DNA of 64,000 bases from Eukaryota sp. GEM-RC1. Its lineage: Eukaryota. Positions 1-49,126 of this stretch are shown here, piece by piece (within the stretch, counting starts at the first letter, position 1; each line of letters opens with the position of its first letter). The DNA lies in assembly GCA_040285855.1 (NCBI GenBank), contig JAUFOQ010000004.1, positions 1,302,001 to 1,366,000 on the forward strand. Reading direction: 5' to 3'. A program made the translations under genes and the position numbers. The notes beneath the pieces were generated by a model, which did no database searches, was not told the DNA's origin, and worked only from the letters and a program-made list of their open reading frames with translations.

Positions 1-3000
1 ATCAGTAACGACAGTTCTTCTACTCAATTAATTGTTGGTTCAACTGCTTATTTAGATGGAATACTAGAAATTGAATTTGACACAAAGTCTGACTCAACCA
101 GGTATAATTATACTCTGATAGAGTCTGATCAAATTAATGGAAGATTTAGAAGCATAATTAATCCTTGTGCTTCACTTATAACCACCTTTTATTCAAAGTC
201 TTCTCTAATTGTCTCTGTAAATGATTTTGTAGTCGACTTACAACAAGGTTCTTACGTTTCACCTACTGGAGTTGATGATCCTTGTTGTGGAACTTTTGAC
301 AGTCCTTGTGCTTCTTTTAGAGGAGTTTTAGAAAGAATGGGAAGAAAAGGGACGGTGTATTTCCATAGTGGTCACTATTTGTTTAATCAAGGTTTCGGCA
401 AATTAATTGATGTTGATTGGGAAGTTATTGGTCTCGTTGACGTCATCATTGATGGAAGTGATGAGACTATACTTGACATTATTTATTCTTCTTTGACCTT
501 TCATAATTTAATTATCTACGGCAAAAATGTAGTTTTTGAGGTTTCTGATTCATCAATCATTTTTGATTTCGTGAGTGTTCTTTCCGTCTCTAATGATACC
601 ATGTTTTTAATTGAAAATTCCTCTTTAACTACAACAAACTGTCTGTTTGACATCGATTCTTTTCGTCTATTTGAATGTATTGAATCTTTACTTTTCATCA
701 ACAATTCTAGTTTTTCCGGATCATTGTCTGACTCGTTAATCTCGTTGTCATCATCGTCAATGATTTTTGACAATACACTTTTTAATGACTTGAATGTTAA
801 TAATTTGGTTGTTTCTTCCTCTTCGTCTATTAAACTCAATCATTTATCAATAACGGAAGTAACTGCTAACACTGTATTTCAATTACATCAGTCTATTATT
901 CTCATGAATAATTTAATTGTTTTTTCAATCTTTTCAAAAGACTTTTGTTTATAGTACGTTCTCAATTATTTCTCTAAATACTCTCAAAGTGGATCAATCA
1001 ATTTCTACTGTGTGGTTCAGTTTAATCAATTGTAAATTCCACTTACAAAATTTGAATTTCTCAAGTATTCACGGTGATGCTTTTAGTGTCTTAAATTCGA
1101 CGGACTCCTCTTTATCTATGGTTTTGGTTGTGAATTCGAACTTGTCCATCTTTCTCAACGTTTTAAATTCAGGATTGTCCATCAACTCTCTTTCTCTTTT
1201 CAACTGTATAGGAAGTATACTAGAATCTTGTGTTAATAGTTCAATTACCACACAGAATTTGGCCATTACTGATTCATTATTTGATACTTTGTTTTTGTTA
1301 TCAGACTCGTCCTTGAGTTTATCTTTGGGTAACATTGGGTCATCGTCGTTTAATAATAGTACACTTGTGCTTTATAACTCTACCCTGGACATGGAAGAAG
1401 TTACCATTGATTTGGTTTCAACTTCTATTTTCTTAGAGTCTATAGAAAGTAATAGTACTTTTAAGAATATTGTATTACGTCGTTATGAGTTTCTCCAGTT
1501 TTTGGTTCTAACTCTGTCCAAAACTAATTTTTTTCTCTATTCATGGATCGTTGCCAACTGTCTGAATTAGATTTTTCAGTATATGATATTTTTTTAATTG
1601 ACTCGTATCTAACTCTGGAAAAATCTAATATTTCTGGATGTGTTTCTAACCAAGACTTTAAGTTGAGTTTATATTCAGAAAAATCTTACCTGTATTTTCA
1701 TAAGTTTGATCAGGAATTCTACTTTTCTTCATTGGTTTTAGATCATTCCAATGTCTCAATAATGTCATATTCCCCAGTAATTTCTAAGTCTGTTTTAATT
1801 GATGAAGAATCTATTATAATTGGTAATGCTCCATTACTAGATCTTTCCAGATTAATTTCGAATATTTCGATTTTTCCTTCACAACACTGCTGCAACACGT
1901 CTATTTGTCAAGTTTCTCTGAATTTTGATAATATCGAGTATCTTTCAGAGTTACTAGAACTCTCAATCCTTAATAATTTTCTTATTTTTCCACCAGAGGT
2001 TAGATTTAATTCTCAAATTCAATTTGTGCTTAGTGAAGATATTTCTCATCTCTTCATAACACATGGAAGTTAAACGATTTCTGTTCACAATGGTGCCAAT
2101 ATTTTAAATTTGAAGGATTCTCCCACCTTCATTACTCTTCACAGATATTCTCAGTCAATGAACGTCAGTTTTGTTACTTCTTTTATTGACACCGTAATTC
2201 CTGATGTGATTGAGGTAAATCACCTTCAATCTATTTTGATTGATCTGAACAACAAATTGTATTATTTAGATGTCAGTTGTTCTGGTAACTGTGATTTGGC
2301 TTTAGACCATCTTCCGAACTCCACTATTAAGGTTTCTTTTACTGGTATTGAAATTGGATCAATTGTACTGGAGTTTTACGTTAATTATTCCAATTCAAAT
2401 TTCCACTTTCGGATCCCAATATCAGTTGAAAGACCTCCTGTATTTGAACTTGTAAGTCCAAATGTTTTGTCTACCTCTGTAAATTCTCTAGTTTTCATTC
2501 ACAGTTACTCATATTTTGATTTGGAATCCTATTTTTCTTTTGATGATTCTAATATTGAACCTACTAATGTTGAGCTCCTCTCCAGTTCTGATTTCTTCTT
2601 TGTTTATAGATTTGAACTGAATCTTACTTCCATGCCAGTTTTTGAGGGGGAATCTGTCCAAGATCTTTGTTGGTCTCAGAGAGGATTCAGAAGATCATTG
2701 GTCACTCAAATTAAAATATATAATTTTGAATTCAGTAGTAACGATCACGTTAGTGTTTTTGAACATCGTGATATTTCTGTTGACTTCCGAGGAAATCTTA
2801 CCTCAAACGTGACGTGTTCTATTGATGGTCAAATCTTCTTTGGAAAAGTTGTTGATATTTTACTGGTTTGCAAGAGTGTAAGAATTCCAACTTTCCAGCA
2901 ACACGTGTGTGTTGACGTTTACTATGATCACTTTCTTTTGAATTCTTTTGAAATTCATGGTGAATCCTTTTTGGAGGAGGTTTGCTTCGAGTCATTTTCA

Positions 3001-4215
3001 CGTCATCCTTTGGTGAATTCTTCTGAAATTATTTTAAATCGAGAATCAAATTTAATATTCGACGGCTCAAGATGCTGTAGTGTTGATGTTTTCTATTGTT
3101 CAGAATTAATCTCCAAAAATGAATTAGTTACATTCGATTTTCCTTCACTATTTGACATTCATCACGTTATTATCACGTCAAATTCTAGTTGTGAAGAGAT
3201 TGATTCTGGACTTCCTTTTGAACTGATCGTTAACAATCACGCTATTTCACCATCCATTATTTGTAAGCAAATTCCTAGTGGATATTCCTTCGCATCAATG
3301 TGTGAAATAGATGTAATTTTTCCAAAAATTTCTGAGATTACTCTAGTAGCTCTAGAAGACGTTTACTTACTTGAAGTAGAGTTTTATGGATACAAATCTA
3401 ATTCCTGTTTTAAACCTTTTCATGGGGAAAAGGCGTAACTTCATTAGGAGGAATAATTGATGAAGATGTTCATTTGAGATTTAATAATCAATCTTTTGAT
3501 TCAATTTCGGAATTCAAACAATTCGTGGTTGATAAGTCAAGTTTCTGGTCATCGTCATTTCTAACTTTTGCCACTGAGTTGTATTCTCCTTATTGTTATT
3601 ATTCTACTGTTAGTTATCCAACAGTTTTGACTGCTTCATCAGCATCATTTGTAATCTTTCTAGCTGAAGAAGTAGAACTAAATCCTCAATTTTTAAACAT
3701 TTCTATCCCAATTATTTGTGTTGATCCTTTGAATTTCATTGTGCACTGTAGTGATATGTTTACAGTAACGACTTCAACATTTGAATACTTGAGTTTCTAT
3801 TTTTGAATAATTCATTGATTTTTTCTTTCCTGAATTTGATCAAACTAGGAGAACATTCTCTATCAATTACTTATGGTCAAAGTCAATTTTACTGGAATGG
3901 GATTATTGTTCAAAAATTTTATGAAATATTTGAAATTAGTGATTCCGGAACACACTGGTGTGATCACCAATTTACTTTGGATAAAACATGTACTTTATTA
4001 CACTTTTCGTCCACATTAATAACTCAAAATTTATATTCTAATTTTTCAAAAATACTTTTGATTTCAGATTTAAGAATAGATCTTGAGTTTGATACTTCAA
4101 TCCTACATGTTGTTAATGGATCCACTTTGGAAATTATTGGACCTCCACGTCAATCAATGACGATTACACTTTCCTATTCATCCCAATATACTGCTGTCGA
4201 GCTAGTTTCAAATGA
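1..4215 (+). pseudogene. Copy A of giant modular surface/membrane protein family; begins before the window, has an internal deletion and is truncated before the Cys-rich/TM region
   Basis: Near-identical to 37513-43160 (copy D). Lacks D 39490-40922. Shares the in-frame TAA at 2071-2073 with D (41016-41018). Identity to D stops at ~4215 (gtttcaaatga|gtatt vs gtttcaaatga|ttgtcac). Confidence 0.85.
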
Positions 4216-4714
4216 GTATTCTATTTGGAAATTAGAAACTAAACAAATATCATCCATGAATACATAAAAACTTACTTACCTGATACAAGTAAATCTTCAC
4301 TGTTATACAAGCAAATATCGGGGGATGTCGTACAAAATACAACTGGTGAAACACTAGACACACAAAATTCCTGGTCAACAGCACCTTAGTTCTTCTACAA
4401 CATAGTGATAATTGACTTAATAAAGTTTGAAGACTGGCCTTAACAAAGAAACCATGAAACGCTGTTGCCAAATTAATGACGATGTTGAACTTAAACATAC
4501 AATCAAAATTAATGAAAAACTGAGAAGACATTTCATCAATGCTATCAAAAAATAGGAATATGAAATCCACCAAATCCAAATGTCGAGTACAAATTTTGAT
4601 AGAGCACATCAACTGTTGATGTGCTCAACGTCATTCTGCACAAAAGCTATGTTTCGTTTTCGGCCAAGTGATTAAAATCTTTCGAATTCATGATGCTAAA
4701 ATACATACATACAA

Positions 4715-5550
4715 TGTTGTGAGCCTACTATTAGTGGAATCAGACAGAATTCTAGTGGCCTCACTCAAAATCATCACCGAATTCCTATAGAGCTCAAGTT
4801 CTGTCAAATTCCTAAAAACTACACCTTCTGATTGAAGGTTTGAGGAAGTTAAAGACAATAATCCAATGTAAAATGAAGCAGCTACAAATGATGCTGCGGA
4901 ACCGACAAATGACAATTTCCCATTTCCAAACATTCCTTGTGGAAGATCAAAAGAGAGCAGTTTAATCTCAGCTTCTGTTAGAGTTCTGGTATAAAACTGG
5001 ACGGCGCGCATTTTACCTTGAAAATCATTACCGTCTGGTTGTATTTCAGAAAGAGGAAAAAGAGGAGGAGGGCCCTTAGAACATTGATATGGAGATTGAG
5101 GAACAACAGGCTCTGACACCAAAGTTCTATTGATATACACACGAGATGACTCGTGATCAAATGTAAATTCCACGTGGAACTACTTACGAAAAGGAAGAAC
5201 ATCATGAGTAATAGAAGAACCCCAGTGTAGACTGTTGTCTGAGAAGTGAAGCCTACAAGGACTTTGACAGTACCCAAAACCTGCACCACCTCCCTCTTCC
5301 AAGTATATCCATAAAGATATAGAAGTACCTCTCCAACCGTGTTCTTTAGGGATATTGGAACATGTAAGATGTCAAAATGTTTGATATCTAAATAACCACC
5401 GATATCGTCAGTTTTCCATTCAGGTCCATCAATTTTGATTGCAGCAGGATCATGTTTTCCTGAAAAGTCAATTGGGCTAGGTGAATAAACCCAGCTGTAG
5501 TAAAGAAACAAGTCAGGATCAGAAGAATCAAAAACACTGTCAATAATAAA
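4715..5550 (-). pseudogene. Orphan LamG/concanavalin-like module of the surface-protein family
   Basis: ORFs 4978..5598 and 4688..5173 contain FLYYSWVYSPSPIDFSGKHDPAAIKIDGPEWKTDDIGGYLDI ... FQGKMRAVQFYTRTLTEAEI ... GNGKLSF, homologous to modules 2 and 3 of copy C (23961.., 25320..) but a distinct variant. No signal peptide or TM region attached. Confidence 0.8.
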
Positions 5551-5802
5551 ATTAAATATTAAACATATTAAATATTTCAAACATTTTGATAGCATCATAT
5601 AATATCTTGTTTATCTACAAACGTTCTATTAAAAACAAAGACATATCCGCTACATAGCTTTTTTTACTAACGTGCATTGTTACAGAAGATGTATTATACA
5701 TGAATTGTTATGTTTATTACTTTCTTGTAATCAAGTAAGAAAACGTCGGCTCATATAGGTTCAAACAATCAAAAAATGGAAAACCACAACAGTAAATCAA
5801 AC

Positions 5803-8800
5803 TCAAACATACACCATGAAATTATGTACACAAACTAAAGAACTAATTCCAAGAACAACTCGTTCAAAAGAAGTAGAAACACAGTAAAGACAAATCAATA
5901 AAACTGTTTGAATAATGAAATAGATTAAACTCGGTAGTAACTCTGCAAAGATTATGACACAATAAACAACAAGTGAAAAAATATAAGGGAGTGTTCGTTG
6001 AGCATATATGACATAAAAAACAAAAATAATATGAATAAAAACAAAAATAAATAATAGAAATGGCAATTGTTGACTAAAGAAATGAGACAAAGTCATTCCA
6101 AAAACATAATTTAGTGAAATAAAGGCAGCTCCAGTAAAGAAGGAACTATGAAAAATATTAAAAGTTTTGAACTTAAAATATTCTGTTAAGCAAAATCTTG
6201 AAGAAAACGACAGAGAGCATACAATTAAAGGTAACAATATCATTGACTTATCTAAATAAAACAGAGATGAAACATATTCAAGAAAAATCAAACTGAAGGA
6301 AACTCTTTTGTAACTGAAGACTGAAACTGAGAAAAGAAAGACATTCAAAATATTGGAATAATTTAAATGATGCTTCAAAATTTGAGAGGAACGGAAAAAC
6401 GATAAAGAAGAGATGGACAATCATAAAAGCACGTGACATTACTTTTGATTGAAGAAAGGCAATGAGGAGCACATCTGCCACAAACAGAACTACAACAAAG
6501 AACATGAATAGAAGAATTTTGAAAAATAAATGTTCTTTTCCGATACAATAAATCCTAGTAACAACAGCATCTTCAGTACAATATTGACACAAATCTCCAT
6601 AAGCATGACGTGATCTGCAGGAATTCTCGTGACAACTATACCAAAAAACACACTCATCTAGTTCCCAAGTATCAGTATTTAATCTAAAACCAGGTTCAAT
6701 TCCAGTCAAATTTCCATATCCACATTCAGCTAAATGAGGACAAGGTAAACAAGAATCTACAGAATCTAGAGTGTTCAAAGGACAAACACATTGGACAAGA
6801 TCACTAGAACCTTTTTGAAGAGTAACTCTAGGAAAAGAACAAGACCTACATTCTGAATTAAATTCTGAACTTGAATAATAATTTAGCGAACATTCCACAC
6901 ATTCACCAAGAGAATTAAATTCCATTCCTTTTGAACATAAACATCCATGTCCAGAATTCAATTTAGGAAAGTGACAATCATTGGATACCAGATTGCTAGT
7001 AGCAGAATGCGATAAATAGGAAATTGTAATCGTCATTGACTGACGTGGAGGTCCAATAATCTGCAACGTGGATTCATTAACGACATGTAAAACTGAAGAC
7101 GCAACTTCAAGAACAATACTTAAATCTGAAAACATAATGGCTTTCGAATAATTAGAAAATTGATTTTGAATTATCAATTTAGATGAGAAGTCCAATAAAG
7201 TACATGCATTATCAGAGGTATAGTGATGATCACATCTAGTAGTTTTAAAATGACCAACTTCAAATATTTCATTAAAATTTTGAATAACATTCACATTCCA
7301 ATAAAACTGACTTTGATTGTAAGTAATTAAGAACGAATGTTCCCCAAGATTGATCATATTCGATAAAAAGAAAATCAATGAATTGGAAATGACATCAAAT
7401 TTCAAGTATTCAAATGTTGAAGTCATTACTGTAAACATATCACCACAGTCAACAACGAAATTCAAAGGATCGACACACAATATCGGAATTGAAATATTCA
7501 AATATTGAGGATTTAGTTCTACAACATCAGCTAGAAAGATCACAAATACTGCTGACGACGCAGTAAAAACAGTTGGATGACTAACAATAGAATAATAACA
7601 ATAAGAAGAATATAACTCAGTGGGAAAAGATAGAGATGATGATGACCAGAAAGTTGTCTTATCAACCACAAATTGTTTGAATTCTGAAATTGAATAATAT
7701 GATTGATTATTAAATCGCAAATGAATAACTTCATCAATTAGTTGTCCTAGAGAAGTTACTCCTTTTACCAATGAAAAGGTTTAAAACAAGAATTAGATTT
7801 GTAACCATAAAACTCTACTTCTAGTAAAAAAACGTCATCTAAAGGTAGTAGAGTAATTTCAGAAGTATTTGGTAAAATTAAATCTATTTCACACATTGAT
7901 GCAAATGAATAACCACTAGGAATTTGCTTACAAGAAACGGAAGTGGAAAGAGTTTGATTGTTGACAATGAGCGCAAAAGGAAAACCAGAATCAATGCCCT
8001 GACAACTAGAATTAGACGTGATTATGATGTGATGAATGTCATAATTAGATTCAAAGAAAAAAGAAACCATTTCGGTAATGTAAAAGAATTCTGAACAATA
8101 AGAAACATCAACACTACAACATCTTGAACCATCAAATATTAAATTTGTTTTCATATTCGAATTAATCTCAAAAGAATTTACCACAGGGTGATGTGTAAAT
8201 GAGCTGAAGCATATCTCCTCCAAAAAAAGCCTCACCATAAAGTTCAAAAGAATTCAAAAGAAAGTAATCATAGTAAATGTCAACAGACACGTGTTGCTGA
8301 AAAGTTGGAATTCGGACACTCTTGCAAACCAGCACGTGATCAACGACTTGTCCGAAGAAGGTTTGATCATCAATAGAACAAGTCACGTTTGAAGTAAGAT
8401 TTCCTTTGAAGTCAACAGAAATATCACGATGTTCAAAAACACTGACGTGATCGTTACTGCTGAATTCCAAATTGAAGAATTTAATTTCTGAAACAAGCTG
8501 TCTTCTGAATCCTATCTGAGACCAACAAAGATCTAGGACATATTCACCGTCAAACACTGATATGGAAGTAAGATTCAGATCAAATCTGTAAACAAAGAAG
8601 GAATCAGAACTGGAGATGAGCTCAACGTGAGTAGGTTCAATAACAGAATTATCAATCAAAAAATATCCTGTTATGACAAAATGTGAGTAACTCAAAATTT
8701 CTAGAAGAGAATCTTCAGATGTTGTGACAACATTTGGACTTATAAGTTCAAACACTGGAGGATTTTCTACTACTATAGGAATTCGAAAGTTGAAATTGGA

Positions 8801-11800
8801 ATTAAGATAAAGAATAATAAACTCCAAAGTAATTGTTTCGGACTCAAATCCAGTAAAAGAGATAATTGGAACTGATTCATGTATATACTTCGAGTGTAAA
8901 TCACAGAAACCAAGACAACGTACATTTAAACGATAAAGTATATTTCTTAAATCAATCAGGCTTGACTGAAAATTATTGAGCTCAATTACCTCAGGAATTT
9001 CTGAGTAAAGCATAGAGGTAACAACACTGATGTTCATTGACTGAGAGAATCTGTGAAGACTGATAAATGTAGAAGCATCTTGCAAATTTAAAATATTTGC
9101 CCCATTGTTAACAGGTACAGCTTGACTCCCAACGGTTATAAAAAGATGTTTAATATCTTCAACAAGAGTAAACTCAATGCGTGAATTATAACTAACTTCT
9201 GGGGGAAAAATAAGAAAGTTCTTGGCTTCAACTGAAAGGCTTAAAGGTAAAATATCTAAAAATGATGTTCCTATTAAAGTACAATTTCCCATACTAGAAA
9301 ACTCAACATCAAAAATTAGGGAAGATTCAGAGAAACCAGAAAGTATAGATGAACAATTGTCAAAATGAAAACTGTTTTGAATCACAGAGAAACTGTAAAA
9401 TGAAATACCCTCAACTTCAACAAGAACTTCAGTAGTTATAGGTTCATTTAACCATTGGACATGCTTTGGAGATAAATAAGAAGGCTCAACAACAAAAGGT
9501 AAATTATAAATTGCAAAACAACCAAGTTTGGAACAAATTTTTAAATCTTGTGGTATTCCAGGTACATAAGAAATAAATGTAACACTAGCAAACGATTCAG
9601 TTGATCCAAAATAAAGAAAATAAATACTATCGGGAACATTAGGTTCAATGAAAGTTTCGAGGAACGAAAAGGACTCCAAATAACTGTAAACATCAATTTC
9701 ACAAGCAAAACCTACAAAACAAACAAACTCAGTTTTTCTCGCAATACAGGAAGTCACTGGTACAGATATTAAAAAATTGAAATCTTCGATAAAGATTACA
9801 AACTCTGTTGACCCATATAATTCACCTGTGATAACAGTCATTTCACTATCAGAAGAGATGTTGAACGTTGCAGTACTAACAGCAAATTCAATATATGAAT
9901 TATGAAAACAATTAAACATTTTTGAGAAATTTCGATAATGTAAAAGAATAGTTTCACCAGTGGGGGAAAGAGGAACAGGTTGATAAATAACTTTTGGTGG
10001 ACGAAAACTGAGTTGATAAGAAGTACTACTCTGATTTCCAATTATTAAATCAATTTCAAATTTGGTGGAATTGATATCACAAATATAATGTACATCTAAA
10101 ATAATTTCATCATGTGTGTAATTGAACACATCAACTTGTGGAAAGCTTGAAAGCAAAGAGAAAAATTCAAAATTTGTGGAAAAATCTGATCCTTTTAGAG
10201 TCAGTGATCCTGTTAAAGGGAAAGGATTTGGAGTTACAGAATGAATGATAGGTTGTTTAAAACAGTAATGAAAGAACAACGTTTCCGTATCAGTTGATCT
10301 AGATATGACCATTTCATGACACCCATGACCCTCAAAAAGAAAATATTTAAATTTTCATGATTACTTGAAGAATATTCAAGACTTTGATTGACCCATGCAG
10401 TTGAATGATGAATAACAATAGGATCTAATCCAAGATTAAAAGCAAACAGTGGTACAAATCCACCTCTAGTTGGAGGTTCTAGACTAACAAACTCAATAGG
10501 ACACATAGGAACGAATAGGTGATGAAAAGAAAATATTCTGGAAAAACCTAAATTAAAATAAATTGAATTATTCATTGGATTGAAAGTAATAATGTCGGTT
10601 AAAAAAAAAGTCAAGAGAATTCAATAAGAAGTTGTGGTAGAATTCATCATTATTAGGGACTGAGAGTTCCAGTAACTCTGAAATATATCCTATATTATTG
10701 AAATTCAGAGAAACCTGACAGATAGACGTGTTACAACAGTGTTGCGAAGGAGAAATTGAAATATTTGAAATTAAAAACGAAAGATCTAGTAATGGAGCAT
10801 TCCCAAGGATAATAGATTCTTCATCAATGGAAACAGACTTTGAAATTATTGGAAAATGTGACATTATAGTAATATTGGAATGGTCCAAAACTATTGAAGA
10901 AAAGAAGAATTCCTGGTCAAAAGCAAGTAAATGGAGAAAAGATTGTTCTGAATATAAACTCAATTTAAATTGTTCATTAGAAACACATCCCGAAAGATAA
11001 GATGTTTCCAGTGTTAGATAAGATTCAATTAAAATAATGTCGTAAATTGAATAATCTAATTCAAAAAGTTGACAACGATCCATAGACAGAGAGTAGAAAC
11101 TCGCTTTAGATCTGGTTAATACCAAAAACTGGAGAAAATCATAATTACGTATGATAACATTCTCAAAAGTACTAGTACTTTCTTTTGACTCTAGGAAAAC
11201 AGAAGTTGAAACCATATCAATGGTAACCTCCTCCATCTGCAGGGTAGAGTTATAAATCACAAGTGTACTATTATTAAACGACGATGAACCAATGTTACCC
11301 AAAGATAAACTCAATGACGAATCTGATAACAAAAACAACGTATCAAATACTGAATCAGTAATGGTCAAATTATGTGTGGTAATTGAGCTATTGACAGAAT
11401 GTTCTAGTATACTTCCTGTGCAGTTGAAAAGAGAAAGAAGATAAATGGTCAATTCTGAATTTAAGGCGTTAAGGAAGACAGATAAGTTTGAATTAACAAC
11501 CAAAACCATAGATAAAGAGGAGTCCGTTGAATTTACAACACTGAAAGCATCACCGTGAGTACTAGAGAAATTCAAATTATTTAAGTGGAATAAACAATTG
11601 ACTAAACTGAACCACACATTAGAAATTGATTGATCAATTTCGATCAAACTCAGAAAAATAGTTGATAAGTTACCGCAAACAAAATCTTTTGAAGAAACTG
11701 AAGTAATATTTAAATTATTCATAACGATATCAGATTGATCTAAATGAAATACCGAGTTAGCAGTAACTTGCATTATTGACGAATGACTGAACTCAATAAA

Positions 11801-14800: not shown

Positions 14801-15030
14801 AAAAGAAGCTCAACATTGGAGGAGAGTGTGAGAGATGATACAAGAACTTTAGATTGAACAATTACTGTTAAAGGAGAGGTTTGAGGTGGAAAATAAGCGA
14901 AAGAATGTTTTGAAGGAGCTATACCCGTTTCCCAGTTGTTACCATCAGTCCAAAACCCATCAGTTGTAGCATTCCAACGATAAACTGAGGCAAACGCATA
15001 ACAACAAAGGATCAGAACGACTACTATCAT
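5803..15030 (-). CDS. Copy B: ~3,070-aa modular surface protein (signal peptide, RCC1 repeats, beta-helix-like/IPT-like stalk, ephrin-receptor-like CxxC repeats, multi-pass TM C-terminus); frameshifted in this assembly
   Basis: Tiling ORFs 13918..15030, 12545..13717, 12052..12594, 10568..12055, 10234..10614, 8168..10312, 7765..8247, 6278..7771, 5803..6420. Hydrophobic N-terminus MIVVVLILCCYAFA. RCC1 motifs (ASAGRWHSLVLLTNGDVYSAGNNDHGQLG; VYSWGNNQYGQLGLG). YISPSGVDDPCCGTFDSPC beta-helix cap-like motif. CxxCxxNYYS/CxxC..GS..C repeats. Several hydrophobic helices at the end. Confidence 0.8.
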
Positions 15031-15071
15031 AAAAGACTGGAAGAATTAGTTAGAAATTGTTGCAGTTGTTG

Positions 15072-15386: not shown

Positions 15387-16087
15387 TTACCATTGATATA
15401 ATCCCATATTAGGTACTGGAGAACTTCTTCCAATGCTTAAAATCTTTAAACTTCTCCAAAACCGAACCCTACTTAAGGTCACATAAAGCTGCGCATATTC
15501 CCAGAACTGAATAGCAACTTCAATCCCGTCAATTGTGAAACCCTGGGATCGATGGACTGTTATCGCCCAGCAAGGTCTTAGCGGAAACTGAATTCTTTTT
15601 GCCACTTGAAAAGGTCTTCCGAAATTTGACTGATAGATTCTTTTTGGTTCTGCTTCAGCGTTGAACCGTACATCAATATATGTGACTGAAAAATTAACAA
15701 TAACTCCTTTTGAACCATTAACTAGTCCAAGTTCTGGTTTGTTTTGAGTTTACATCACTTGTCCTCCAACAACACAGTCAAGTTTTTTTCCGGCAACATC
15801 TTCCAATCGATTTGACAGTACAGAAGTTTCAAAAAAACTAGAAAATCTCTAAAACAAATCACTTGAAATCCTCCAAATGGTTTCTTCGGAGTGTGACATT
15901 TTGGCGTCTGCATAAGCTCACTCAAAATGTCACTCGTCCGTTGGAACAAATTGGAGGATATCAATTGAAATTTCATCACTGCACCAGAGAGCTTGTAGAA
16001 GATATGATTTTCCAGATCCTGCTCCACCAGTGACAAAGAAGTTGTGTCTGCTGGTAGTGATTGCGTTAAAGATCTCACGTTGGTCAT
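15387..16087 (-). pseudogene. PIF1: Degenerate PIF1-family helicase fragment (possibly Helitron-derived)
   Basis: KPFGGFQVICFRDFL (cf. PFGGxQxIxxGDFxQL). NKPELGLVNGSKGVIVNF read at ~15690-15745. RIQFPLRPCWAITVHRSQGFTID...QLYVTLSRVR (PIF1 C-terminal motifs). Walker A and Rep domain not seen. Confidence 0.8.
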
Positions 16088-16626
16088 CTGTGAGATTGAT
16101 GTTGTGTATAGTGCTTGGTGCTATTGAGTTGATGGATTGTTTTAACGCAAGGAAACTTGGTCTTCATCAAAATTCTCTTTCACTTCACAACCTGACTTTA
16201 TGCCGTAGTTTGAGTTTTTTCAATTTATCCCGCAATTATATTGGCCGAATCTTTGAAGATACGGATCCATTTCTTGTTTCTCAGTTTGACTCTTATAGGT
16301 TGACTTTACACGTTATAAAACATAGACAATATCCAATATTTATACTTACTTCCTTCGTTCAGATCCTGGATGATTGTTTCACGAGATGTTTGATAGATAC
16401 GAGATGTGTTTGGCAAGATGTTCTTTATTTATACTATACTACTTAGTTCGTCCAGATCCTAGCTGAATGTTTCACAAGATGCTTGATAGATACATGATGT
16501 TTGACAGAGACAAGATGTGTAACACAAAATGTGTTGGTCAAGACATGTAATACAAGATGTGTAATACAAGATCTATAGCAATATTTTAAATATTGCTGGG
16601 TTGTAGGGTTGTTAAAAGGTCACATG

Positions 16627-32300: not shown

Positions 32301-33597
32301 CAATTTTACATGTCGTTAATGAATCCACGTTGCAGATTATTGGACCTCCACGTCAGTCAATGACGATTACAATTTCCTATTTATCGCATTCTGCTACTAG
32401 CAATCTGGTATCCAATGATTGTCAATTTCCTAAATTGAATTCTGGACATGGATGTTTATGTTCAAAAGGAATGGAATTTAATTTTCTTGGTGAATGTGTG
32501 GAATGTTCGCTAAATTATTATTCAAATTCAGAATTTAATTCAGAATGCAGATTTTGTTCTTTTCCTAGAATCACTCTTCAAAAAGGTTCTAGTGATCTTG
32601 ACCAATGTGTTTGTCCTTTAAACACTCTAGATTCTGTAGATCATTGTTTACCTTGTCCTCATTTAGCTGAATGTGGATATGGAAATTTGACTGGAATTGA
32701 ACCTGGTTTTAGATTAAATACTGATACTTGGGAACTAAATGAGTGTGTGTTTTGGTATAGTTGTCACGAGAATTCCTGCAGATCACGTCATGCTTATGGA
32801 GATTTGTGTCAATATTGTACTGAAGATGCTGTTTCTAGTCGAATTTACTGTATCGGAAAAGAACATTTATTTTTTAAAATTCTTCTATTCATGTTTTTGT
32901 TGTAGTTCTGTTTGTTGCAGATGTGCTCCTCATTGCCTTTCTTCAATCAAAAGTATTGTCACGTGCTTTGCGATTGTCCATCTCTTCTTTATCGTTTTTC
33001 CGATCATCTCAAATTTTGAAGCATCATTTAAATTATTCAAATATTTTGAATGTCTTTCTTTTCTCAGTTTCAGTCTTCAGTTACAAAAGAGTTTCCTTCA
33101 GTTTAATTTTTCTTGAGTATGTTTCATCTCTGTTTTATTTAGATAAGTCAATGATATTGTTACCTTTAATTGTGTGCTCTCTGTCGTTTTCTTCAAGATT
33201 TTGCTTAACAGAATATTTTAAGTTCAAAACTTTTAATATTTTCCATAGTTCCTTCTTTACTGGAGCTGCCTTTATTTCACTAAATTATGTTTTTGGAATG
33301 ACTTTGTCTCATTTCTTTAGTCAACAATTGCCATTTCTATTATTTATTTTTGTTTTTATTCATATTATTTTTGTTTTTTATGTCATATATGCTCAACGAA
33401 CACTCCCTTATATCTTTTCACTTGTTGCTTATTGTGTCATAATCTTTGCAGAGTTGCTGCCCAGTTTAATTTATTTCATTGTTCAAACAGTTTCATTGAT
33501 TTGTCTTTACTGTGTTTCTACTTCTTTTGAACGAGTTGTTCTTGGAATTAGTTCTTTAGTTTGTGTACATAATTTCATGGTGTATGTTGGAGTTTGA
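20366..33597 (+). CDS. Copy C: ~4,400-aa modular surface protein, as copy B plus a ~4-kb insert carrying three LamG/concanavalin-like modules; frameshifted in this assembly
   Basis: ATG at 20366 (MIVVILILCCYAFASVYRW). Tiling ORFs 20279..21997 through 32923..33597. LamG-like units FLYYxW..D.SG..G..W...G.l..V..F.R.LS..EI at ~22570-23160, ~23950-24530 and ~25320-25890. 3' two-thirds and ~250 bp of 3' flank near-identical to inverted copy B. Confidence 0.8.
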
Positions 33598-35115: not shown

Positions 35116-38100
35116 ATGGTCGTGGTCTTTCTTCTCCTTTGCTGTTATACTTATGCCTCAAATTGTCGATGGAATGTCACGACTGATGGATTTTTGGTTT
35201 GACAGTAACAACTGGGATCGAGGTATCGTTCCCTCTCAACATTCTTTCGCTATTCTCCCACCTCAAACCGTTCTTTTAACAGCATTTGTTGAATTCAAAG
35301 TTGATATAACGTCTCTCGCTCTGTCCTCCAATGTTGAGCTTTTTTTCACCGATAACTCTACCCTAACCGTGTCTGATAGCCTTGTCATGAATGGGGGTAG
35401 CTTAAGCACCGATACATCGTCTCCTCTCTCTTTTTCTTCTGTTAAATCTCTCATTGTGGATTCTGTTGATCCTATTACTTTCTCTTCTCACAAACTCATA
35501 GTTACAGATCTCTTTGAGTGGAAACGTGGTTCAATTGATCTAGATGGGTTCAGTGAACTTGTTCTTGTCAATGTTACTTCCCGTAATGATGGTGAATCCT
35601 CAACCAGTTCTGATGTTCTTCATGTTTGGGGAAGGAATGAGTATGGTCAGTTTGGAGGAGAACTGTCTGGAAGTCAAGTTTTCCCTGGAGTCATTCAATT
35701 TTCATTTTCCTATTAAACAAGCTTCAGTTGGAAGATGGCATTCTCTAGTTCTGTTAACAAATGGTGACGTTTACACTGCTGGACGTAACTATTATGGACA
35801 ACTAGGATGTGACGGTGGTGATCGTAATTTTCATGAGAGAATTCAAATTTCTAATATTATTCAAATTGTCGTTTCTTTTCGCTCAAGTTATGCCTTGAAT
35901 AGTTCTGGTTCTGTTTACTCTTGGGGTAATAACCAGTATGGTCAGTTAGGATTAGGACATTTATCTAACAAAGACACCCCTTCTTTAATTCAAAATTTAG
36001 AAAATGTTAAACAAATTGTTGGTAGACAAGTCGCAACATTTGCTTTAACTAGAGATGGTAAAGTTTTTGGATGGGGAAGTGGTTCTGGTAATATTTTTGT
36101 AAGGAAATTACTGCCAATGAACATTCACCAGTGCCAGTCGAACCATTGGAAAATATTAAATTTATTGCTGCTGGCTGGGCTGCCTTTTTCATTAAAGAAA
36201 ATGGTTCTACTCTTACCTGTGGTAGAAAATTGGGTGGTTCTGGAACTTATTTGACACTGACTGAATTTGCCAATCATATTGAGTTTACTTTTATTGACAT
36301 TTCCTCTGTTCACGCGCTTGGAATTGATATTAACCAGAAGCTGTGGAGTTGGGGTGAAGGTGGCGATGGTAGACTAGGTAATGGGGATACATCCCAATCT
36401 TCAACTCCAGTTGAAGTAAAAAACATTGGGAAAGTGTTTACCGCAGCTGCATGATTGAGTCATTCCACTGCTGTTGACGTTAATAATGACGTGTGGTCTT
36501 GGGGTAATCATTTCGACGGTGCTCTAGGTAGAACTACTACCTCTCCTAATGAAAGATTCATTCCAGGTCGTATTACTCATTTGGAGAACAAAGAAATTAG
36601 TGGTATCAATGCATATTATAGGTCTAATTTTGCTTATAGTTCACAGTCTAGTGAGAAGGAAAATTTTCACTTATCAATTCAGAAGTACAGTTATATTCCT
36701 CGAAGTTCGACGTTAGAACAATTTCTCTAACATACTCGACTCTTTATTTAAATGACGTCTATTTTAACAATTTAAAATTCTTCGAATTATTGGCTAATTC
36801 ATCAGTAAATGTAACTAGTGACTCCAAAATTGCTTCTGATGATCTAACTATCACCTTAAATTCAAGTGATCTCTACTATGATGATTCAGTCGACATATCG
36901 TCATCAAGTGTCAGTTTGATTGCTATCAACAGTCGTTTCCAGAATGATTTTGACTTTGATAATATCCGTGTTTTAGATTTATCCTTTTCAACTTTTGAGT
37001 CAGCTTCAAGTATTCATATCATTGTTGGGTACTTCTCTTGTTTTCATTGTCAACTACTTGGAAACTCTTCGTTGTTGACAGAAACATATTCTGAGATTAA
37101 TTCAGGGAATTTCTCATCTTCATTAGTTGTTACACAATCAGCAGATACTAATACGCTCATTGGTCAAGTTCAATTGGCGAATTCTATTGATTTCTTCAGT
37201 TACGTGATTCTTGATGACGTGTCAGTTTCAGAATTCCAGTCTTCGATTGGGTCCATCATTTGTCATTCTGATGTTTTGATGAGAAATGTTGTAGCTATTT
37301 CCAGTATTCCGTTCGTTTTCCACAATGCATTGATTTTATCTGATGCAACTGTCTTTCTTGATCCGCTCTTTGTTCTCTTAGATTTTCAAACTTTGAAAGG
37401 CGTTGGTACTATTGATACTAATATTTTAAATTTTGGAAGAATTAATCCTTCTTCTACATTAACTTTTAATGACAATCTTACTCTTTCCTTTTCGTCCATA
37501 GTAACTCTTCAGATCAGTAACGACAGTTCTTCTACTCAATTAATTGTTGGTTCAACTGCTTATTTAGATGGAATACTAGAAATTGAATTTGACACAAAGT
37601 CTGACTCAACCAGGTATAATTATACTCTGATAGAGTCTGATCAAATTAATGGAAGATTTAGAAGCATAATTAATCCTTGTGCTTCACTTATAACCACCTT
37701 TTATTCAAAGTCTTCTCTAATTGTCTCTGTAAATGATTTTGTAGTCGACTTACAACAAGGTTCTTACGTTTCACCTACTGGAGTTGATGATCCTTGTTGT
37801 GGAACTTTTGACAGTCCTTGTGCTTCTTTTAGAGGAGTTTTAGAAAGAATGGGAAGAAAAGGGACGGTGTATTTCCATAGTGGTCACTATTTGTTTAATC
37901 TAGGTTTCGGCAAATTAATTGATGTTGATTGGGAAGTTATTGGTCTCGTTGACGTCATCATTGATGGAAGTGATGAGACTATACTTGACATTATTTATTC
38001 TTCTTTGACCTTTCATAATTTAATTATCTACGGCAAAAATGTAGTTTTTGAGGTTTCTGATTCATCAATCATTTTTGATTTCGTGAGTGTTCTTTCCGTC

Positions 38101-41100
38101 TCTAATGATACCATGTTTTTAATTGAAAATTCCTCTTTAACTACAACAAACTGTCTGTTTGACATCGATTCTTTTCGTCTATTTGAATGTATTGAATCTT
38201 TACTTTTCATCAACAATTCTAGTTTTTCCGGATCATTGTCTGACTCGTTAATCTCGTTGTCATCATCGTCAATGATTTTTGACAATACACTTTTTAATGA
38301 CTTGAATGTTAATAATTTGGTTGTTTCTTCCTCTTCGTCTATTAAACTCAATCATTTATGAATAACGGAAGTAACTGCTAACACTGTATTTCAATTACAT
38401 CAGTCTAATAGTGTCATGAATAATTTAATTGTTTTTTCAATCTTTTCAAAAGACTTTGTTTATAGTACGTTCTCAATTATTTCTCTAAATACTCTCAAAG
38501 TCGATCAATCAATTTCTACTGTGTGGTTCAGTTTAATCAATTGTAAATTCCACTTACAAAATTTGAATTTCTCAAGTATTCACGGTGATGCTTTTAGTGT
38601 CTTAAATTCGACGGACTCCTCTTTATCTATGGTTTTGGTTGTGAATTCGAACTTGTCCATCTTTCTCAACGTTTTAAATTCAGGATTGTCCATCAACTCT
38701 CTTTCTCTTTTCAACTGTATAGGAAGTATACTAGAATCTTGTGTTAATAGTTCAATTACCACACAGAATTTGGCCATTACTGATTCATTATTTGATACTT
38801 TGTTTTTGTTATCAGACTCGTCCTTGAGTTTATCCTTGGGTAACATTGGGTCATCGTCGTTTAATAATAGTAGACTTGTGCTTTATAACTCTACCCTGGA
38901 CATGGAAGAAGTTACCATTGATTTGGTTTCAACTTCTATTTTCTTAGAGTCTATAGAAAGTAATAGTACTTTTAAGAATATTGTATTACGTCGTTATGAG
39001 TTTCTCCAGTTTTTGGTTCTAACTCTGTCCAAAACTAATTTTTTTTGTCTATTCATGGATCGTTGCCAACTGTCTGAATTAGATTTTTCAGTATATGATA
39101 TTTTTTTAATTGACTCGTATCTAACTCTGGAAAAATCTAATATTTCTGGATGTGTTTCTAACCAAGACTTTAAGTTGAGTTTATATTCAGAAAAATCTTA
39201 CCTGTATTTTCATAAGTTTGATCAGGAATTCTACTTTTCTTCATTGGTTTTAGTTCATTCCAATGTCTCAATAATGTCATATTCCCCAGTAATTTCTAAG
39301 TCTGTTTTAATTGATGAAGAATCTATTATAATTGGTAATGTTCCATTACTAGATCTTTCCAGATTAATTTCGAATATTTCGATTTTTCCTTCACAACACT
39401 GCTGCAACACGTCTATTTGTCAAGTTTCTCTGAATTTTGATAATATCGAGTATCTTTCAGAGTTACTAGAACTCTCAATCCCCAATAATGATAAATTCTC
39501 TCACAACTTCCTATTGAATTCTCTTGACTTCTTATTAAATGATATTATTTCTTTCAAGAATATTTCAGTTTTTTTCAAATTCACTATTTCCAGAATATTT
39601 TACATTCGACGTGCGTTCATCCGTATTTGTCCTATTGAGTTTGTTAGTCTAGAACCTCCAACTAGAGGTGGATTTATACCACTGTTTGCTTTTAATCTTG
39701 GGTTAGATCCTATTGTTATTCATCATTCAACTGCTTCGATCAATCAAAGTCTCGAATATTCTTCAAATAATCATGAATATTTCCACTTCTTCTTTTTGAA
39801 AGTCATGGTTGTCATGAAATGATTGTTTCTAGATCCACTGATGAAGCAATGATATATTTTAAATATTGTTTCAAGCGTCCTCATATTCAAACTATTTCCC
39901 CAAATCCTTTCCCTTTAACAGGACCATTGACTATTACAGGATCAGATTTCTCTACAAATTTTGATTTTCTTGCTATTCTTTCAAGCTTCCCACAAGGGGG
40001 AAGTTCGTAATTATACACACGAAGAAATCGTTTTACACATCCCCTTTATTTGCGATATCACTTCCACTAAATTTGAAATTGTTTTAATAGTTGGAAATCA
40101 GTTCAGTAACTCTTATCAAATCCATTTTGGTCCGCCAAGAGTTACTTATCAACCTGTTCCTCTTTCTCCTTCTGGTGAAACTATTCTTCTTTATGATCCA
40201 AATTTTTCAAAAATGTTGAACTGTTACCATAACTCATCTATCCAATTTTCAGTTAGTAGTGCTACTTTTGAAATAGTACTTGATGATGAAGTCAATGTTA
40301 GAACTGGTTCTTTATATGGATCAACTGCGTTTGTAATCGATATCCAGTTTTTCAAGGATTTCAATTTTTAATTTCTATACCGGTGACGTCATTTGTCGCT
40401 AGAAATACCCCATTTGTTTGCTTTGTGGGTATTGCTTGTGAAATTGAAGTTTATACTTATCTGGAAGAATTCTCGTTTCTCGAAACTTACATTGAACCTA
40501 ATGTACCTGATAGTATTTACTTTCTTTATTTTGGTTCAACTGTTTCTTCTGCTATTGTTACATTTATCTCTTATGTTCCTGGAGTTCCTCAAGATTTGAA
40601 AATTTGTGCACATTTTGGATGTTTTTCTATTTTTAACTTACCCTTTGTCATTCAGCCGGCTTATTTATCTCCAAAGCATTTCCAATGGTTAAATGAGCCT
40701 ATATCTACTGAAGTTCTGGTTGAAGTTGAGGGTATTTCCTTTTACAGTTTCTCTGTAATTCAAAACAGTTTTTATTTTGACAATTGTCCATCTTTGTTAT
40801 CTTATTTAAGTGAATCTTACATGATCTTTGATGTGGTGATTTCTCAAATAGGAACTTGTTCATTAGTTGGATCTTCTTTTTTAAATATTGTCCCATTCAA
40901 CATGATTATTGAAACCAAGAATTTTCTTATTTTTCCACCAGAGGTTAGATTTAATTCTCAAATTCAATTTGTGCTTAGTGAAGATATTTCTCATCTCTTC
41001 ATAACACATGGAAGTTAAACGATTTCTGTTCACAATGGTGCCAATATTTTAAATTTGAAGGATTCTCCCACCTTCATTACTCTTCACAGATATTCTCAGT

Positions 41101-44100
41101 CAATGAACGTCAGTTTTGTTACTTCTTTTATTGACACCGTAATTCCTGATGTGATTGAGGTAAATCACCTTCAATCTATTTTGATTGATCTGAACAACAA
41201 ATTGTATTATTTAGATGTCAGTTGTTCTGGTAACTGTGATTTGGCTTTAGACCATCTTCCGAACTCCACTATTAAGGTTTCTTTTACTGGTATTGAACCT
41301 GGATCAATTGTACTGGAGTTTTACGTTAATTATTCCAATTCAAATTTCCACTTTCGGATCCCAATATCAGTTGAAAGACCTCCTGTATTTGAACTTGTAA
41401 GTCCAAATGTTTTGTCTACCTCTGTAAATTCTCTAGTTTTCATTCACAGTTACTCATATTTTGATTTGGAATCCTATTTTTCTTTTGATGATTCTAATAT
41501 TGAACCTACTAATGTTGAGCTCCTCTCCAGTTCTGATTTCTTCTTTGTTTATAGATTTGAACTGAATCTTACTTCCATGCCAGTTTTTGAGGGGGAATCT
41601 GTCCAAGATCTTTGTTGGTCTCAGAGAGGATTCAGAAGATCATTGGTCACTCAAATTAAAATATATAATTTTGAATTCAGTAGTAACGATCACGTTAGTG
41701 TTTTTGAACATCGTGATATTTCTGTTGACTTCCGAGGAAATCTTACCTCAAACGTGACGTGTTCTATTGATGGTCAAATCTTCTTTGGAAAAGTTGTTGA
41801 TATTTTACTGGTTTACAAGAGTGTAAGAATTCCAACTTTCCAGCAACACGTGTGTGTTGACGTTTACTATGATCACTTTCTTTTGAATTCTTTTGAAATT
41901 CATGGTGAATCCTTTTTGGAGGAGGTTTGCTTCGAGTCATTTTCACGTCATCCTTTGGTGAATTCTTCTGAAATTATTTTAAATCGAGAATCAAATTTAA
42001 TATTCGACGGCTCAAGATGCTGTAGTGTTGATGTTTTCTATTGTTCAGAATTAATCTCCAAAAATGAATTAGTTACATTCGATTTTCCTTCACTATTTGA
42101 CATTCATCACGTTATTATCACGTCAAATTCTAGTTGTGAAGAGATTGATTCTGGACTTCCTTTTGAACTGATCGTTAACAATCACGCTATTTCACCATCC
42201 ATTATTTGTAAGCAAATTCCTAGTGGATATTCCTTCGCATCAATGTGTGAAATAGATGTAATTTTTCCAAAAATTTCTGAGATTACTCTAGTAGCTCTAG
42301 AAGACGTTTACTTACTTGAAGTAGAGTTTTATGGATACAAATCTAATTCCTGTTTTAAACCTTTTCATGGGGAAAAGGCGTAACTTCATTAGGAGGAATA
42401 ATTGATGAAGATGTTCATTTGAGATTTAATAATCAATCTTTTGATTCAATTTCGGAATTCAAACAATTCGTGGTTGATAAGTCAACTTTCTGGTCATCGT
42501 CATTTCTAACTTTTGCCACTGAGTTGTATTCTCCTTATTGTTATTATTCTACTGTTAGTTATCCAACAGTTTTGACTGCTTCATCAGCATCATCTGTTGT
42601 CTTTCTAGCTGAAGAAGTAGAACTAAATCCTCAATTTTTAAACATTTCTATCCCAATTATTTGTGTTGATCCTTTGAATTTCATTGTGCACTGTAGTGAT
42701 ATGTTTACAGTAACGACTTCAACATTTGAATACTTGAGTTTCTATTTTTGAATAATTCATTGATTTTTTCTTTCCTGAATTTGATCAAACTAGGAGAACA
42801 TTCTCTATCAATTACTTATGGTCAAAGTCAATTTTACTGGAATGGGATTATTGTTCAAAAATTTTATGAAATATTTGAAATTAGTGATTCCGGAACACAC
42901 TGGTGTGATCACCAATTTACTTTGGATAAAACATGTACTTTATTACACTTTTCGTCCACATTAATAACTCAAAATTTATATTCTAATTTTTCAAAAATAC
43001 TTTTGATTTCAGATTTAAGAATAGATCTTGAGTTTGATACTTCAATCCTACATGTTGTTAATGGATCCACTTTGGAAATTATTGGACCTCCACGTCAATC
43101 AATGACGATTACACTTTCCTATTCATCCCAATCTACTGCTGTCGAGCTAGTTTCAAATGATTGTCACTTACCTAAATTGAATTCTGGACATGGATGTTTA
43201 TGTCCAAAAGGAATGGAATTTAATTTTCTTGGTGAATGTGCGAAGTGCTCGCTAAATTATTATTCAAATTCAGAATTTAATTCAGAATGCAGACCTTGTT
43301 CTTTTCCTAGAATCACTCTTCAAAAAGGTTCTAGTGATCTTGACCATTGTGTTTGTCCTTTAAACACTCTAGATTCCCTAGATGCATGTTTACCTTGTCC
43401 TCATTTAGCTGAATGTGGATATGGAAATTTGACTGGAATTGAACCTGGTTTTAGATTAAATACTGATACTTGGGAACTAGATGAGTGTGTGTTTTGGTAT
43501 AGTTGTCACGAGAATGTCTGCAGATCACGTCATGCTTATGGAGATTTGTGCCATTATTGTACTAAAGATGCCATTGTTGGTAATAGAATCTACTGTATTG
43601 GAAGAGAATATTTATTGTTCAAGATTCTTTTATTGGTACTCTTTGTCCTAATTCTGTTTGTTACAGATAGAGTTTACATTGCCTTTCTTCAATCAAAAGT
43701 ATTGTCACGTGCTTTGCGATTGTCCATCTCTTCTTTATCGTTTTTCCGATCCTCTCAAATTTTGAAGCATCATTTAAATTACTCAAATATTTTGAATATC
43801 TTTCTGTTCTCATTTTCAGTTTTCAGTTACAGAAGAGTGTCTTTCAGTTTAATATTTTTTGAGTATGTTTCATCTCTGTTTTATTTAGATAAGTCAATGA
43901 GAATGTTACCTTTAATTGTTTGCTCTCTGTCACTTGCTTCAAGATTTTGGTTAACACATTATTTTAACTTCAAAACTTTTAATATTTTCCATAGTTCCTT
44001 CTTTACTGGAGCTGCCTTTATTTCTCTGAATTTTATTTTTGGAGTTACTTTGTCTCATTTTTTCAGTGGTCCAGAGCCATTTCTATTATTTATTTTTGCT

Positions 44101-44337
44101 TTTATTCACATTCTATTTGTTGTTTTTGTTATTTATGCTCAGCGAACACTTCCTTACTGTTTTACCATTATTGCTTATTGTGTTATAATCTTTTCAGAAG
44201 TATTACCCAGTTTAATCTGCTTTATTATTCAAACAGTTTTATTGATTTGTCTTTATTGTGTATCAACTTCCCTTGAACGAATTTCTCTTGGAATTAGTTC
44301 TTTAGTTTGTGTTTATAATTTGATGGTGTACGTTTGA
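35116..44337 (+). pseudogene. Copy D of the modular surface protein (~9.2 kb, no LamG insert), with in-frame stops
   Basis: ATG 35116 (MVVVFLLLCCYTYAS). RCC1 region resembles copy B. In-frame stops TGA 36452-36454 (Gly in paralogues), TGA 38359-38361 (TCA in copy A) and TAA 41016-41018 (CAA in B/C). Intact Cys-rich plus TM ORF 42748..44337. Confidence 0.8.
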
Positions 44338-49034: not shown

Positions 49035-49126
49035 AAAAGGACCTTTTTAGATTCCAGGTACTGAATGATCCCCAAGACAAGACTTTTTCTTCAAAATTTC
49101 TTCACTATCTCCTTTATCTCTTTTTA

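Follow-up and report, generated by a model that had tools for sequence, protein, structure and literature searches.

Mosaic giant genes for putative surface proteins in Eukaryota sp. GEM-RC1 and their probable origin by recombination between paralogues

How can two neighbouring genes be nearly identical at their beginning and along most of their stalk, and yet carry heads that diverged long ago? This question is raised by 64,000 nucleotides of AT-rich eukaryotic DNA from Eukaryota sp. GEM-RC1 (contig JAUFOQ010000004.1, positions 1,302,001 to 1,366,000; the whole stretch is called here the window), which also includes an SF3B3/RSE1 gene. A BLAST comparison of the window against itself brought out four related giant gene copies, A to D, in an array of a family whose copies range from 3,000 to 4,400 residues. 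We believe, with a probability of about 0.7, that they are four members of a Skoliomonas-type family of giant genes for putative surface proteins, and that their mosaic structure derives from ectopic homologous recombination between paralogues. Recombination as the source of the mosaic, taken by itself, is very probable. The members of the array and their parts are the following.

1-4215, plus strand: copy A, with its 5' end beyond the window and its transmembrane (TM) anchor absent
4691-5610, minus strand: fragment of a fifth member, a LamG module and beta-helix junction without signal peptide, abutting the 3' flank of B
5803-15030, minus strand: copy B, about 3,075 codons, with signal peptide, beta-helix cap, RCC1, stalk, Cys-rich block and multi-TM region
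14532-13510, minus strand: RCC1 of B
6976-6529, minus strand: Cys-rich block of B
6526-5808, minus strand: multi-TM region of B
20366-33597, plus strand: copy C, about 4,410 codons, the probable recombinant
20366-20596, plus strand: signal peptide and tip of C, 98% identical to B (silent divergence, dS, 0.018)
20837-26980, plus strand: putative foreign head cassette of C, with RCC1, three beta-helix plus LamG units and stalk part S1
20870-21905, plus strand: RCC1 propeller of C
22581-23145, 23961-24520 and 25325-25876, plus strand: LamG modules of C
26981-27280, plus strand: conserved cysteine box (DDPCCGT motif) at the junction of stalk parts S1 and S2, the switch point of C
29188-29915, plus strand: second putative exchanged patch, 730 bp, IPT/TIG-like by homology to the relative P0126
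32420-32867, plus strand: Cys-rich Ephrin_rec_like block of C
32870-33592, plus strand: C-terminal multi-pass membrane anchor of C, with no cytoplasmic domain beyond it
35116-44337, plus strand: copy D, collinear with B (77-83% identity)

The three-way alignment of B, C and D comprises 9,032 aligned sites, 2,058 of them informative, and falls into five blocks (positions in C). At the beginning (20290-20836) B and C are 90.5% identical, rising to 98% in the signal-peptide tip, against 77.3% for B-D and 76.7% for C-D. Along the homologous part of the head (20837-26980) the figures become 71.1% for B-C, 82.9% for B-D and 71.1% for C-D. Then B-C climbs to 97.3% (26981-29187; B-D 81.8%, C-D 81.5%), falls to 78.8% in the patch (29188-29915; 78.4% and 79.5%) and returns to 97.8% (29916-33585; 82.0% and 82.4%), while B-D identity stays flat along the gene, at 77-83% in all five blocks. 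These figures agree with the initial annotation in that B and C have the signal peptide and the C-terminal two-thirds in common, apart from the patch, and in that C has a different RCC1 variant. It had also likened the RCC1 block of B to that of D; the motif cited for this, SSDVLHVWG..GGELSGSQ, is present in B and D and absent from C, but the flat B-D identity speaks against any special closeness or borrowing. Around 29200-29930 C does depart from B as described, but it is not D-like, since the informative sites of the patch split 65/62/70, leaving the three copies equidistant, and only one short tract common to C and D stands out (C29630-29657, p=0.007).

Informative sites form 460 runs, against 975±21 in 2,000 permutations (minimum 903), and the longest run in which B equals C covers 109 sites, against at most 32 in the permutations. 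Between B and C, dS is low in the tip (0.018), S2a (0.046) and S3b-S4 (0.025) but high in RCC1 (0.58), S1 (0.80) and the patch (0.80), a 30-fold span (B-D ranges from 0.21 to 0.71). Because silent divergence itself runs from 0.02 to 0.80, selection on the protein is excluded as the cause of the blocks. The identity mosaic among B, C and D is real. Moreover, the 139 differences between B and C within the near-identical blocks are clustered (p<0.001), as would be left by conversion tracts that overlap and differ in age. The genes B and C are arranged head to head with 5.3 kb between them, and have ca. 250 bp of 3' flank in common and a looser likeness in the 5' flank. The other pair, A and D, is 99.2-99.6% identical, and at 19 sites with private changes the base found in B/C is retained by A in 11 and by D in five. 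A stretch of D (39482-40919) is missing from A, amounting to 1,433 bp, or 478 codons, and is in frame once the 1-bp indels of D are allowed for. Copy A breaks off at 4215 (D counterpart 43160), no more than two bases from where the Cys-rich block starts, and the DNA past it (4333-4559) resembles 47129-47364 downstream of D (67%). This break, at the most homogenised block of the family, may mark a recombination event.

Which of the copies is the recombinant? Trees built per module disagree: cap and S2 join B with C, leaving D outside, and RCC1 and S1 join B with D. The RCC1 of C clusters with those of the relatives P0004, P0005, P0010 and P0015 (ultrafast bootstrap, UFBoot, 87), all of which run on from RCC1 into LamG units, and the head of C includes a 4-kb block with no counterpart in B. 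Judging from these sequences, C rather than B is the recombinant, carrying a 6-kb head of RCC1 and three LamG modules that would come from another subfamily; the likeness of B to D is ancestry, because the two are collinear throughout and the head of C groups elsewhere. The segmental exchange between paralogues that the initial annotation proposed is thus supported by the heterogeneity of dS and by per-domain trees that, run as a check, proved incongruent. Its statement that C alone has three LamG modules stands with respect to B and D, in which a Pfam scan found none, but a further LamG, 44-64% identical to the third unit of C, lies in the fragment 5610-4691 of the minus strand. Of the modules of C, Laminin_G_3 matches one above the curated cut-off (E 1.4e-9) and two below it (E 0.0017 and 6.7e-6), these two lying in open reading frames (ORFs) split by frameshifts.

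The history that we propose would begin with many similar, clustered copies that pair ectopically. Their exchanges would resolve in conserved coding boxes with the frame kept, so that heads, LamG units and TIG patches could move between stalks and the boxes become recurring crossover points. B and C would have arisen as an inverted duplicate with common flanks. The 6-kb head would have entered C through an exchange bounded by the cap and the conserved cysteine box, and the 730-bp patch would have been replaced in a separate event. Repeated short conversions, by which neighbouring inverted copies homogenise, would hold the rest of the pair at 97-100%, and some products of exchange would decay. 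We favour a B duplicate that was given a new head over an older gene that took both its ends from B because the flanks are common to both copies.

Similar exchange is indicated among the relatives of these genes. GEM-RC1 itself supplies 13 of the 120 matches listed for the N-terminus of C, the top six included (48-63% identity), all 18 for the stalk of D and all six for the C-terminus. The Cys-rich and TM part gave 31 matches against 1.84 billion representatives, and among the 17 of these looked up 11 come from GEM-RC1, three from TZLM1-RC, two from TZLM3-RCL and one from Lithocolla, this last covering the Cys-rich part only. Among the matches looked up, the only named relatives of cap, stalk and TM anchor are from Skoliomonas-type isolates, whose names match Skoliomonas, described as free-living anaerobic bacterivorous metamonads (PMC11603281). 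When the Cys/TM part was scanned against metagenomes, none of the 100 pattern matches listed was a relative. The matches include at least 41 distinct GEM-RC1 gene models (partial ones, hence fewer genes), and 14 of 24 models with head or S1 lie on one contig of 2.82 Mb. In the 30 models that we mapped, all partial, the slot behind the cap takes either RCC1 or LamG, giving the architectures H-R-S1 and H-L-S1, and a model has up to three RCC1 and up to four LamG, so that these modules interchange like cassettes, as expected of the domain shuffling already suspected. A conserved stalk under variable heads, also suspected, does not describe the family: median pairwise identity is 56% in RCC1, 50% in S1 and 37% in S2, and only short boxes are conserved.

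Among nine GEM-RC1 paralogues, window copies left out, the S1 and S2 trees reject each other (differences in log-likelihood, delta lnL, of 326 and 243); three controls with shuffled columns gave 1.7-5.7, and odd/even controls did not exceed 25. With fully resolved trees, approximately unbiased (AU) tests may reject through noise, as happened in the odd/even S2 control, and small delta lnL values were discounted. A breakpoint scan of ten GEM-RC1 paralogues peaks at residues 2203-2293 of C, that is, at the cysteine box where C switches; mean identity in the box is 69-71% amid 24-56% (one other window reaches 75%), and P0132 and P0134 are 55-86% identical before it and 15-24% beyond. In the Cys-rich block, 11 of the 13 young GEM-RC1 paralogues match C at 70-90%, with adjacent 60-residue windows mostly at 20-60%; in three older paralogues and in four proteins of two other isolates the block reaches only 25-47%. 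This likeness seems to reflect concerted evolution rather than constraint alone, because the young paralogues are alike in the block despite divergent flanks and the older ones are not.

What would these proteins look like? The N-termini of B, C and D are hydrophobic and are predicted as signal peptides by hydropathy, and at the C-terminus the three proteins have four or five TM-like segments at a strict threshold (up to eight in relatives) and terminate directly behind the last one. The signal peptide and multi-TM anchor of the initial annotation are found moreover in one chain, P0156 of TZLM1-RC, an intact protein of 2,446 residues with signal peptide, RCC1, stalk, Cys block and TM tail. On C, Pfam gives RCC1 with E 2e-46 and WD40_RLD above its cut-off. 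The model of P0004, the closest relative of the head of C, has a mean confidence (predicted local distance difference test, pLDDT) of 74 and matches HERC2 RLD3 with Z 42.1 and a root-mean-square deviation of 2.3 over 337 residues. Its residues 575-1097 match the beta-helices of pertactin (Z 17.7), UpaB (Z 17.3) and TibA, with Z 15-18 for the three together, and within this span residues 738-933 match a LamG-type/ConA-like domain (Z 16.2). In the model, LamG is an insert in the beta-helix, and from its position RCC1 would be another. We thus predict a pertactin-like rod with RCC1 and LamG inserts, and behind it IPT/TIG-like domains, a Cys-rich block and ca. eight TM helices, and no cytoplasmic enzyme behind the anchor. 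The TM part was modelled as about eight long helices at low confidence (pLDDT 40) and had no usable match in the Atlas; compared with adhesion GPCRs and other 7TM receptors, marked by a 7TM bundle of a GPCR family and a GAIN domain, it gave no Pfam match. The stalk had no match below E 0.25 in a PDB sequence search; in the Atlas it hit unnamed clusters at 0.87-0.90, and rows with Pectate_lyase_5 or Chlam_PMP scored only 0.78-0.81. Two relatives carry further domains ahead of the family modules, an N-terminal protein kinase in P0160 and PF01485 in P0028; each is possibly a fused gene model and possibly a real variant.

One face of the propeller is hypervariable. Loops presumably belonging to the top face, following the RCC1/UVR8 convention, have a mean entropy of 2.24, against 1.05 elsewhere and 0.74 in the opposite turns, and 18 of the 26 most variable RCC1 columns lie in these motif-defined loops. 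We lean slightly towards a role in surface recognition, in which the heads would use this face to bind diverse ligands outside the cell (prey surfaces, glycans, viruses or kin), acting as tethers or receptors far from the membrane. That the distal binding domains are diversified, as first proposed, thus holds for the variable face but not as diversifying selection. The ratio of non-synonymous to silent divergence (dN/dS) is 0.07-0.75 in all long segments, being higher in RCC1 (0.49-0.60) than in the neighbouring S1 (0.32-0.36), and on the top face the proportions of non-synonymous and silent differences (pN/pS) are 0.48/0.55, 0.30/0.48 and 0.51/0.73, on 33-42 codons and with low power.

As assembled, none of the copies A-D has an intact ORF. 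No alternative genetic code mends the frames; short introns or stop read-through do not account for the breaks, which are single-base indels; and programmed frameshifting at stop codons was discarded as the main cause, the indels going in both directions and sitting in homopolymers. The neighbouring genes, two of which serve as error controls, and the contents of the spacer between B and C are these.

15390-18201: spacer between the head-to-head copies B and C, with transposon remnants
15390-16163, minus strand: PIF1-helicase fragments, which we take to be of Helitron-like association
16838-18201, plus strand: remnant of a BED-finger/hAT-like transposase
48980-49411, plus strand: cystatin-domain gene (E 1e-10)
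57177-60453, minus strand: long coiled-coil gene, with weak FAM184 similarity (E 1e-7, just under the cut-off) and one frameshift
60575-64000, plus strand: SF3B3/RSE1 (E 8e-39 to human SF3B3, and Pfam), with three frameshifts in 3.4 kb

A frame-aware parse counted eight breaks for B, 13 for C, 11 for D (which has one more close to its start), five for A, three for SF3B3 and one for the coiled-coil gene; the rate in the family (33 in 31,675 bp) is comparable with that in the two controls (4 in 6,674 bp, p=0.39). The breaks are single-base indels in B (8), C (13) and nine cases in D, and of the 17 that could be placed via the three-way alignment 16 touch runs of at least four bases, against a background of 19%. 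Neither B nor C has a nonsense substitution in this parse. D has three in frame, at 36452, 38359 and 41016, one of them common to A. Three indels are common to B and C, and one, in a T-run, to all four copies (7770 in B, 31626 in C, 42375 in D, 3430 in A), where the relatives P0122 and P0126 are continuous. Downstream of it, three of the four comparisons with D give a dN/dS of 0.25-0.31, the exception being the short Cys block of C versus D, at 0.75. This disfavours an old lesion; the indel is most likely a systematic base-calling error, with transcriptional slippage as a less probable cause. The frameshifts of the family in general are most likely long-read consensus errors, given their homopolymer location, the SF3B3-like rate and the low downstream dN/dS. 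B and C may thus be intact genes, and D and A are likely decaying copies or pseudogenes. Since SF3B3 is frameshifted too, pseudogene calls from this assembly need the reads.

Several points weigh against recombination among surface-protein genes as we propose it. The GEM-RC1 relatives are fragmented gene models taken from a long-read assembly, and polishing artefacts may have raised B-C identity in the 97-100% blocks. The conflict between RCC1 and S1 trees (delta lnL 29 and 36, GEM-RC1 only) is weak, being near its odd/even control (22-25), which gave a rejection as well. At the nucleotide level just one of the three breakpoints (29915) lies beside a top-decile conserved window, the others being at the 9th-65th percentile, and so the notion that conserved boxes contain every breakpoint is borne out only partly. 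The donor of the head of C is not among the matches, the best relative reaching 62-84% per module, and the direction of the transfer is deduced. The pLDDT of 40 makes the TM model unusable. The top-face loops were chosen after the entropy line had been seen and vary in RCC1 folds generally; pS rises on that face too; and dN/dS never exceeds 1, except for six changes in the tip.

There are several alternatives to consider. The one that survives best, though we hold it unlikely, is neutral churn: a decaying array in a transposon-rich region, with recombination as a by-product, no role in recognition, and B and C perhaps pseudogenes. It has the recombination mechanism in common with our proposal, function being the sole difference. 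The three nonsense substitutions of D, the deleted and truncated A, the fragment 4691-5610 and the transposon remnants between B and C would fit such decay, as would the lack of positive selection and the fact that all 30 mapped GEM-RC1 models are partial. However, dN/dS is below 1 in all long segments, also past the four-copy indel, B and C are free of nonsense substitutions, the deletion in A preserves the frame, variation concentrates on one propeller face, and another isolate has an intact member. An improbable alternative of the opposite kind is a combinatorial receptor repertoire in a free-living anaerobic flagellate, where RCC1 propellers with their hypervariable face and LamG lectin modules, plugged into the beta-helix rod, would be actively reshuffled from stalk to stalk at fixed cysteine boxes, quickly enough to vary between clones, for the recognition of prey or viruses in a somatic-like or programmed manner.

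That the pattern is an artefact of a repeat-rich long-read assembly, in which B and C were homogenised or wrongly joined, is quite improbable. The consensus is poor (SF3B3 itself has about one indel per kb), A and D are 99.2-99.6% identical, B and C have their three common indels, and the genome of relatives is 48% repetitive, according to PMC11316075, which describes Skoliomonas genomes as Nanopore assemblies with Illumina polishing. But the near-identical 5' tip (about 230-300 bp) stands isolated between unrelated flanks and the 730-bp patch differs, so B and C were resolved separately. Heads wrongly swapped between stalks would still leave the contrast of 71% versus 97%, polishing by cross-mapping requires copies far closer than 71%, the same break recurs in GEM-RC1 paralogues only 50-86% alike, and A and D both have private changes.

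Programmed switching of any sort seems to us a long shot, and a system resembling antigenic variation, with a silent archive feeding a few expressed loci or the inverted B-C pair flipping heads or promoters, is very unlikely. The head-to-head arrangement, with near-identical tips and stalks as inverted repeats, would suit it, as would partial copies as possible donors and the recurring exchange box. On the other hand, each of B, C and D comes with a signal peptide of its own, the exchanged blocks are old (dS 0.6-0.8), and the named relatives are described as free-living bacterivores, without a host, in PMC11603281. A profile scan of the spacer (15390-18201) found the PIF1 and BED/hAT remnants only and, in this stretch, no site-specific recombinase of the kind that stands beside short inverted sites in shufflon or inverton DNA inversion. 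The antigenic-variation reading of the initial annotation, which would call for an expression site and one-way flow, is not supported. Finally, simple duplication with a head diverged fast by diversifying selection alone may be dismissed: despite the higher dN/dS of RCC1 relative to S1, dS is 0.58-0.80 in head and patch against 0.02-0.05 in the flanking parts, a contrast that refutes it unless the assembly is wrong, and the head of C groups with another subfamily and has a 4-kb block absent from B.

Surface families diversified by recombination have been found before, and the closest match to the exchange proposed here is a young leucine-rich repeat (LRR) gene family of Tetrahymena (PMC6564038). 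There the unit is a 90-bp exon between phase-2 introns; here domains of 190-350 residues lie within long frames, the exchange would occur at conserved coding boxes, and the modules sit on a membrane-anchored beta-helix. Homology blocks flanking variable segments, mosaic genes and pseudogene copies recall the VSG genes of Trypanosoma brucei. Antigenic variation by segmental gene conversion is also known from vlsE of Borrelia and msp2 of Anaplasma. In contrast with these, the blocks here are old and no host immune system is known. As for silent donor cassettes, one piece lacking a 5' end was found, the fragment 4691-5610, and B, C and D have signal peptides (the 5' end of A is beyond the window).

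An RCC1 propeller behind a signal peptide, which had seemed unusual, has precedents in the ectodomains of the plant receptor kinases CRINKLY4/ACR4 and in BLIP-II, both of which match the model. The former have an extracellular seven-bladed propeller with a putative ligand groove and a TNFR-like Cys-rich domain before the membrane (bioRxiv 10.1101/2020.08.10.245050), and the P0004 model matches the ACR4-type structures 7a0j and 7a0k with Z 20.6-20.9. They are, however, small and conserved and signal through a cytoplasmic kinase, while the present family has a true RCC1 repeat (Z 42 to HERC2), a stalk of about 2,000-3,500 residues and a multi-pass anchor; B, C and D end at the last TM segment, and no cytoplasmic kinase after a single TM segment was found in them. 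Bacterial surface proteins with RCC1 repeats make up 107 of the 120 matches listed for the N-terminus of C. They combine RCC1 propellers with LamG, Ig or FN3 in long proteins, but in them, as in BLIP-II (3qhy), the propeller alone matches (24-35% identity). Autotransporter passengers (pertactin 2iou, UpaB 6bea, TibA 4q1q) have the beta-helix rod likewise, and the Pmp proteins of Trichomonas are an expanded metamonad family that raises adhesion (bioRxiv 10.1101/454884). Here there is no beta-barrel, RCC1 and LamG are inserted, and the relatives are free-living; Chlam_PMP repeats had no match at E 0.01-0.05 in window ORFs and the scanned relatives, although the fold is still a beta-helix. The process is thus a known one, and it is the architecture (RCC1 and LamG inserts on a beta-helix with a multi-pass anchor) and the setting that appear to be new. 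We found no description of the family among the papers listed in a literature search that left aside subscription papers and bioRxiv supplements, and 'RCC1' is absent from the main text and six supplements of the relatives' genome paper, one scanned file excepted.

Elsewhere in the window, a broken TnpB/Fanzor-like gene (50466-52829, minus strand) shows RuvC-type and zinc-finger motifs by eye, and Pfam Cas12f1-like_TNB matches it at E 5e-4, below the cut-off. Upstream of it, 52997-55091 (minus strand) has fragments of Ulp1/C48 peptidase (E 3e-8) together with a 112-bp repeat, and the two are perhaps parts of the same mobile element. An Rfam search of the window gave no match.

Variable surface-gene families have been studied mostly in parasites, and here the relatives are free-living, at the base of the Giardia lineage. 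The family is apparently undescribed, current annotations splitting its genes and so hiding it, and its exchange point is recurring and can be mapped. Were the combinatorial repertoire to prove true, it would be a variation system made from folds never seen in that role. If the heads do bind different prey or viruses, the family would offer a culturable system for how a phagotroph diversifies its recognition, and a test of whether surface variation driven by recombination predates parasitism in the metamonads.

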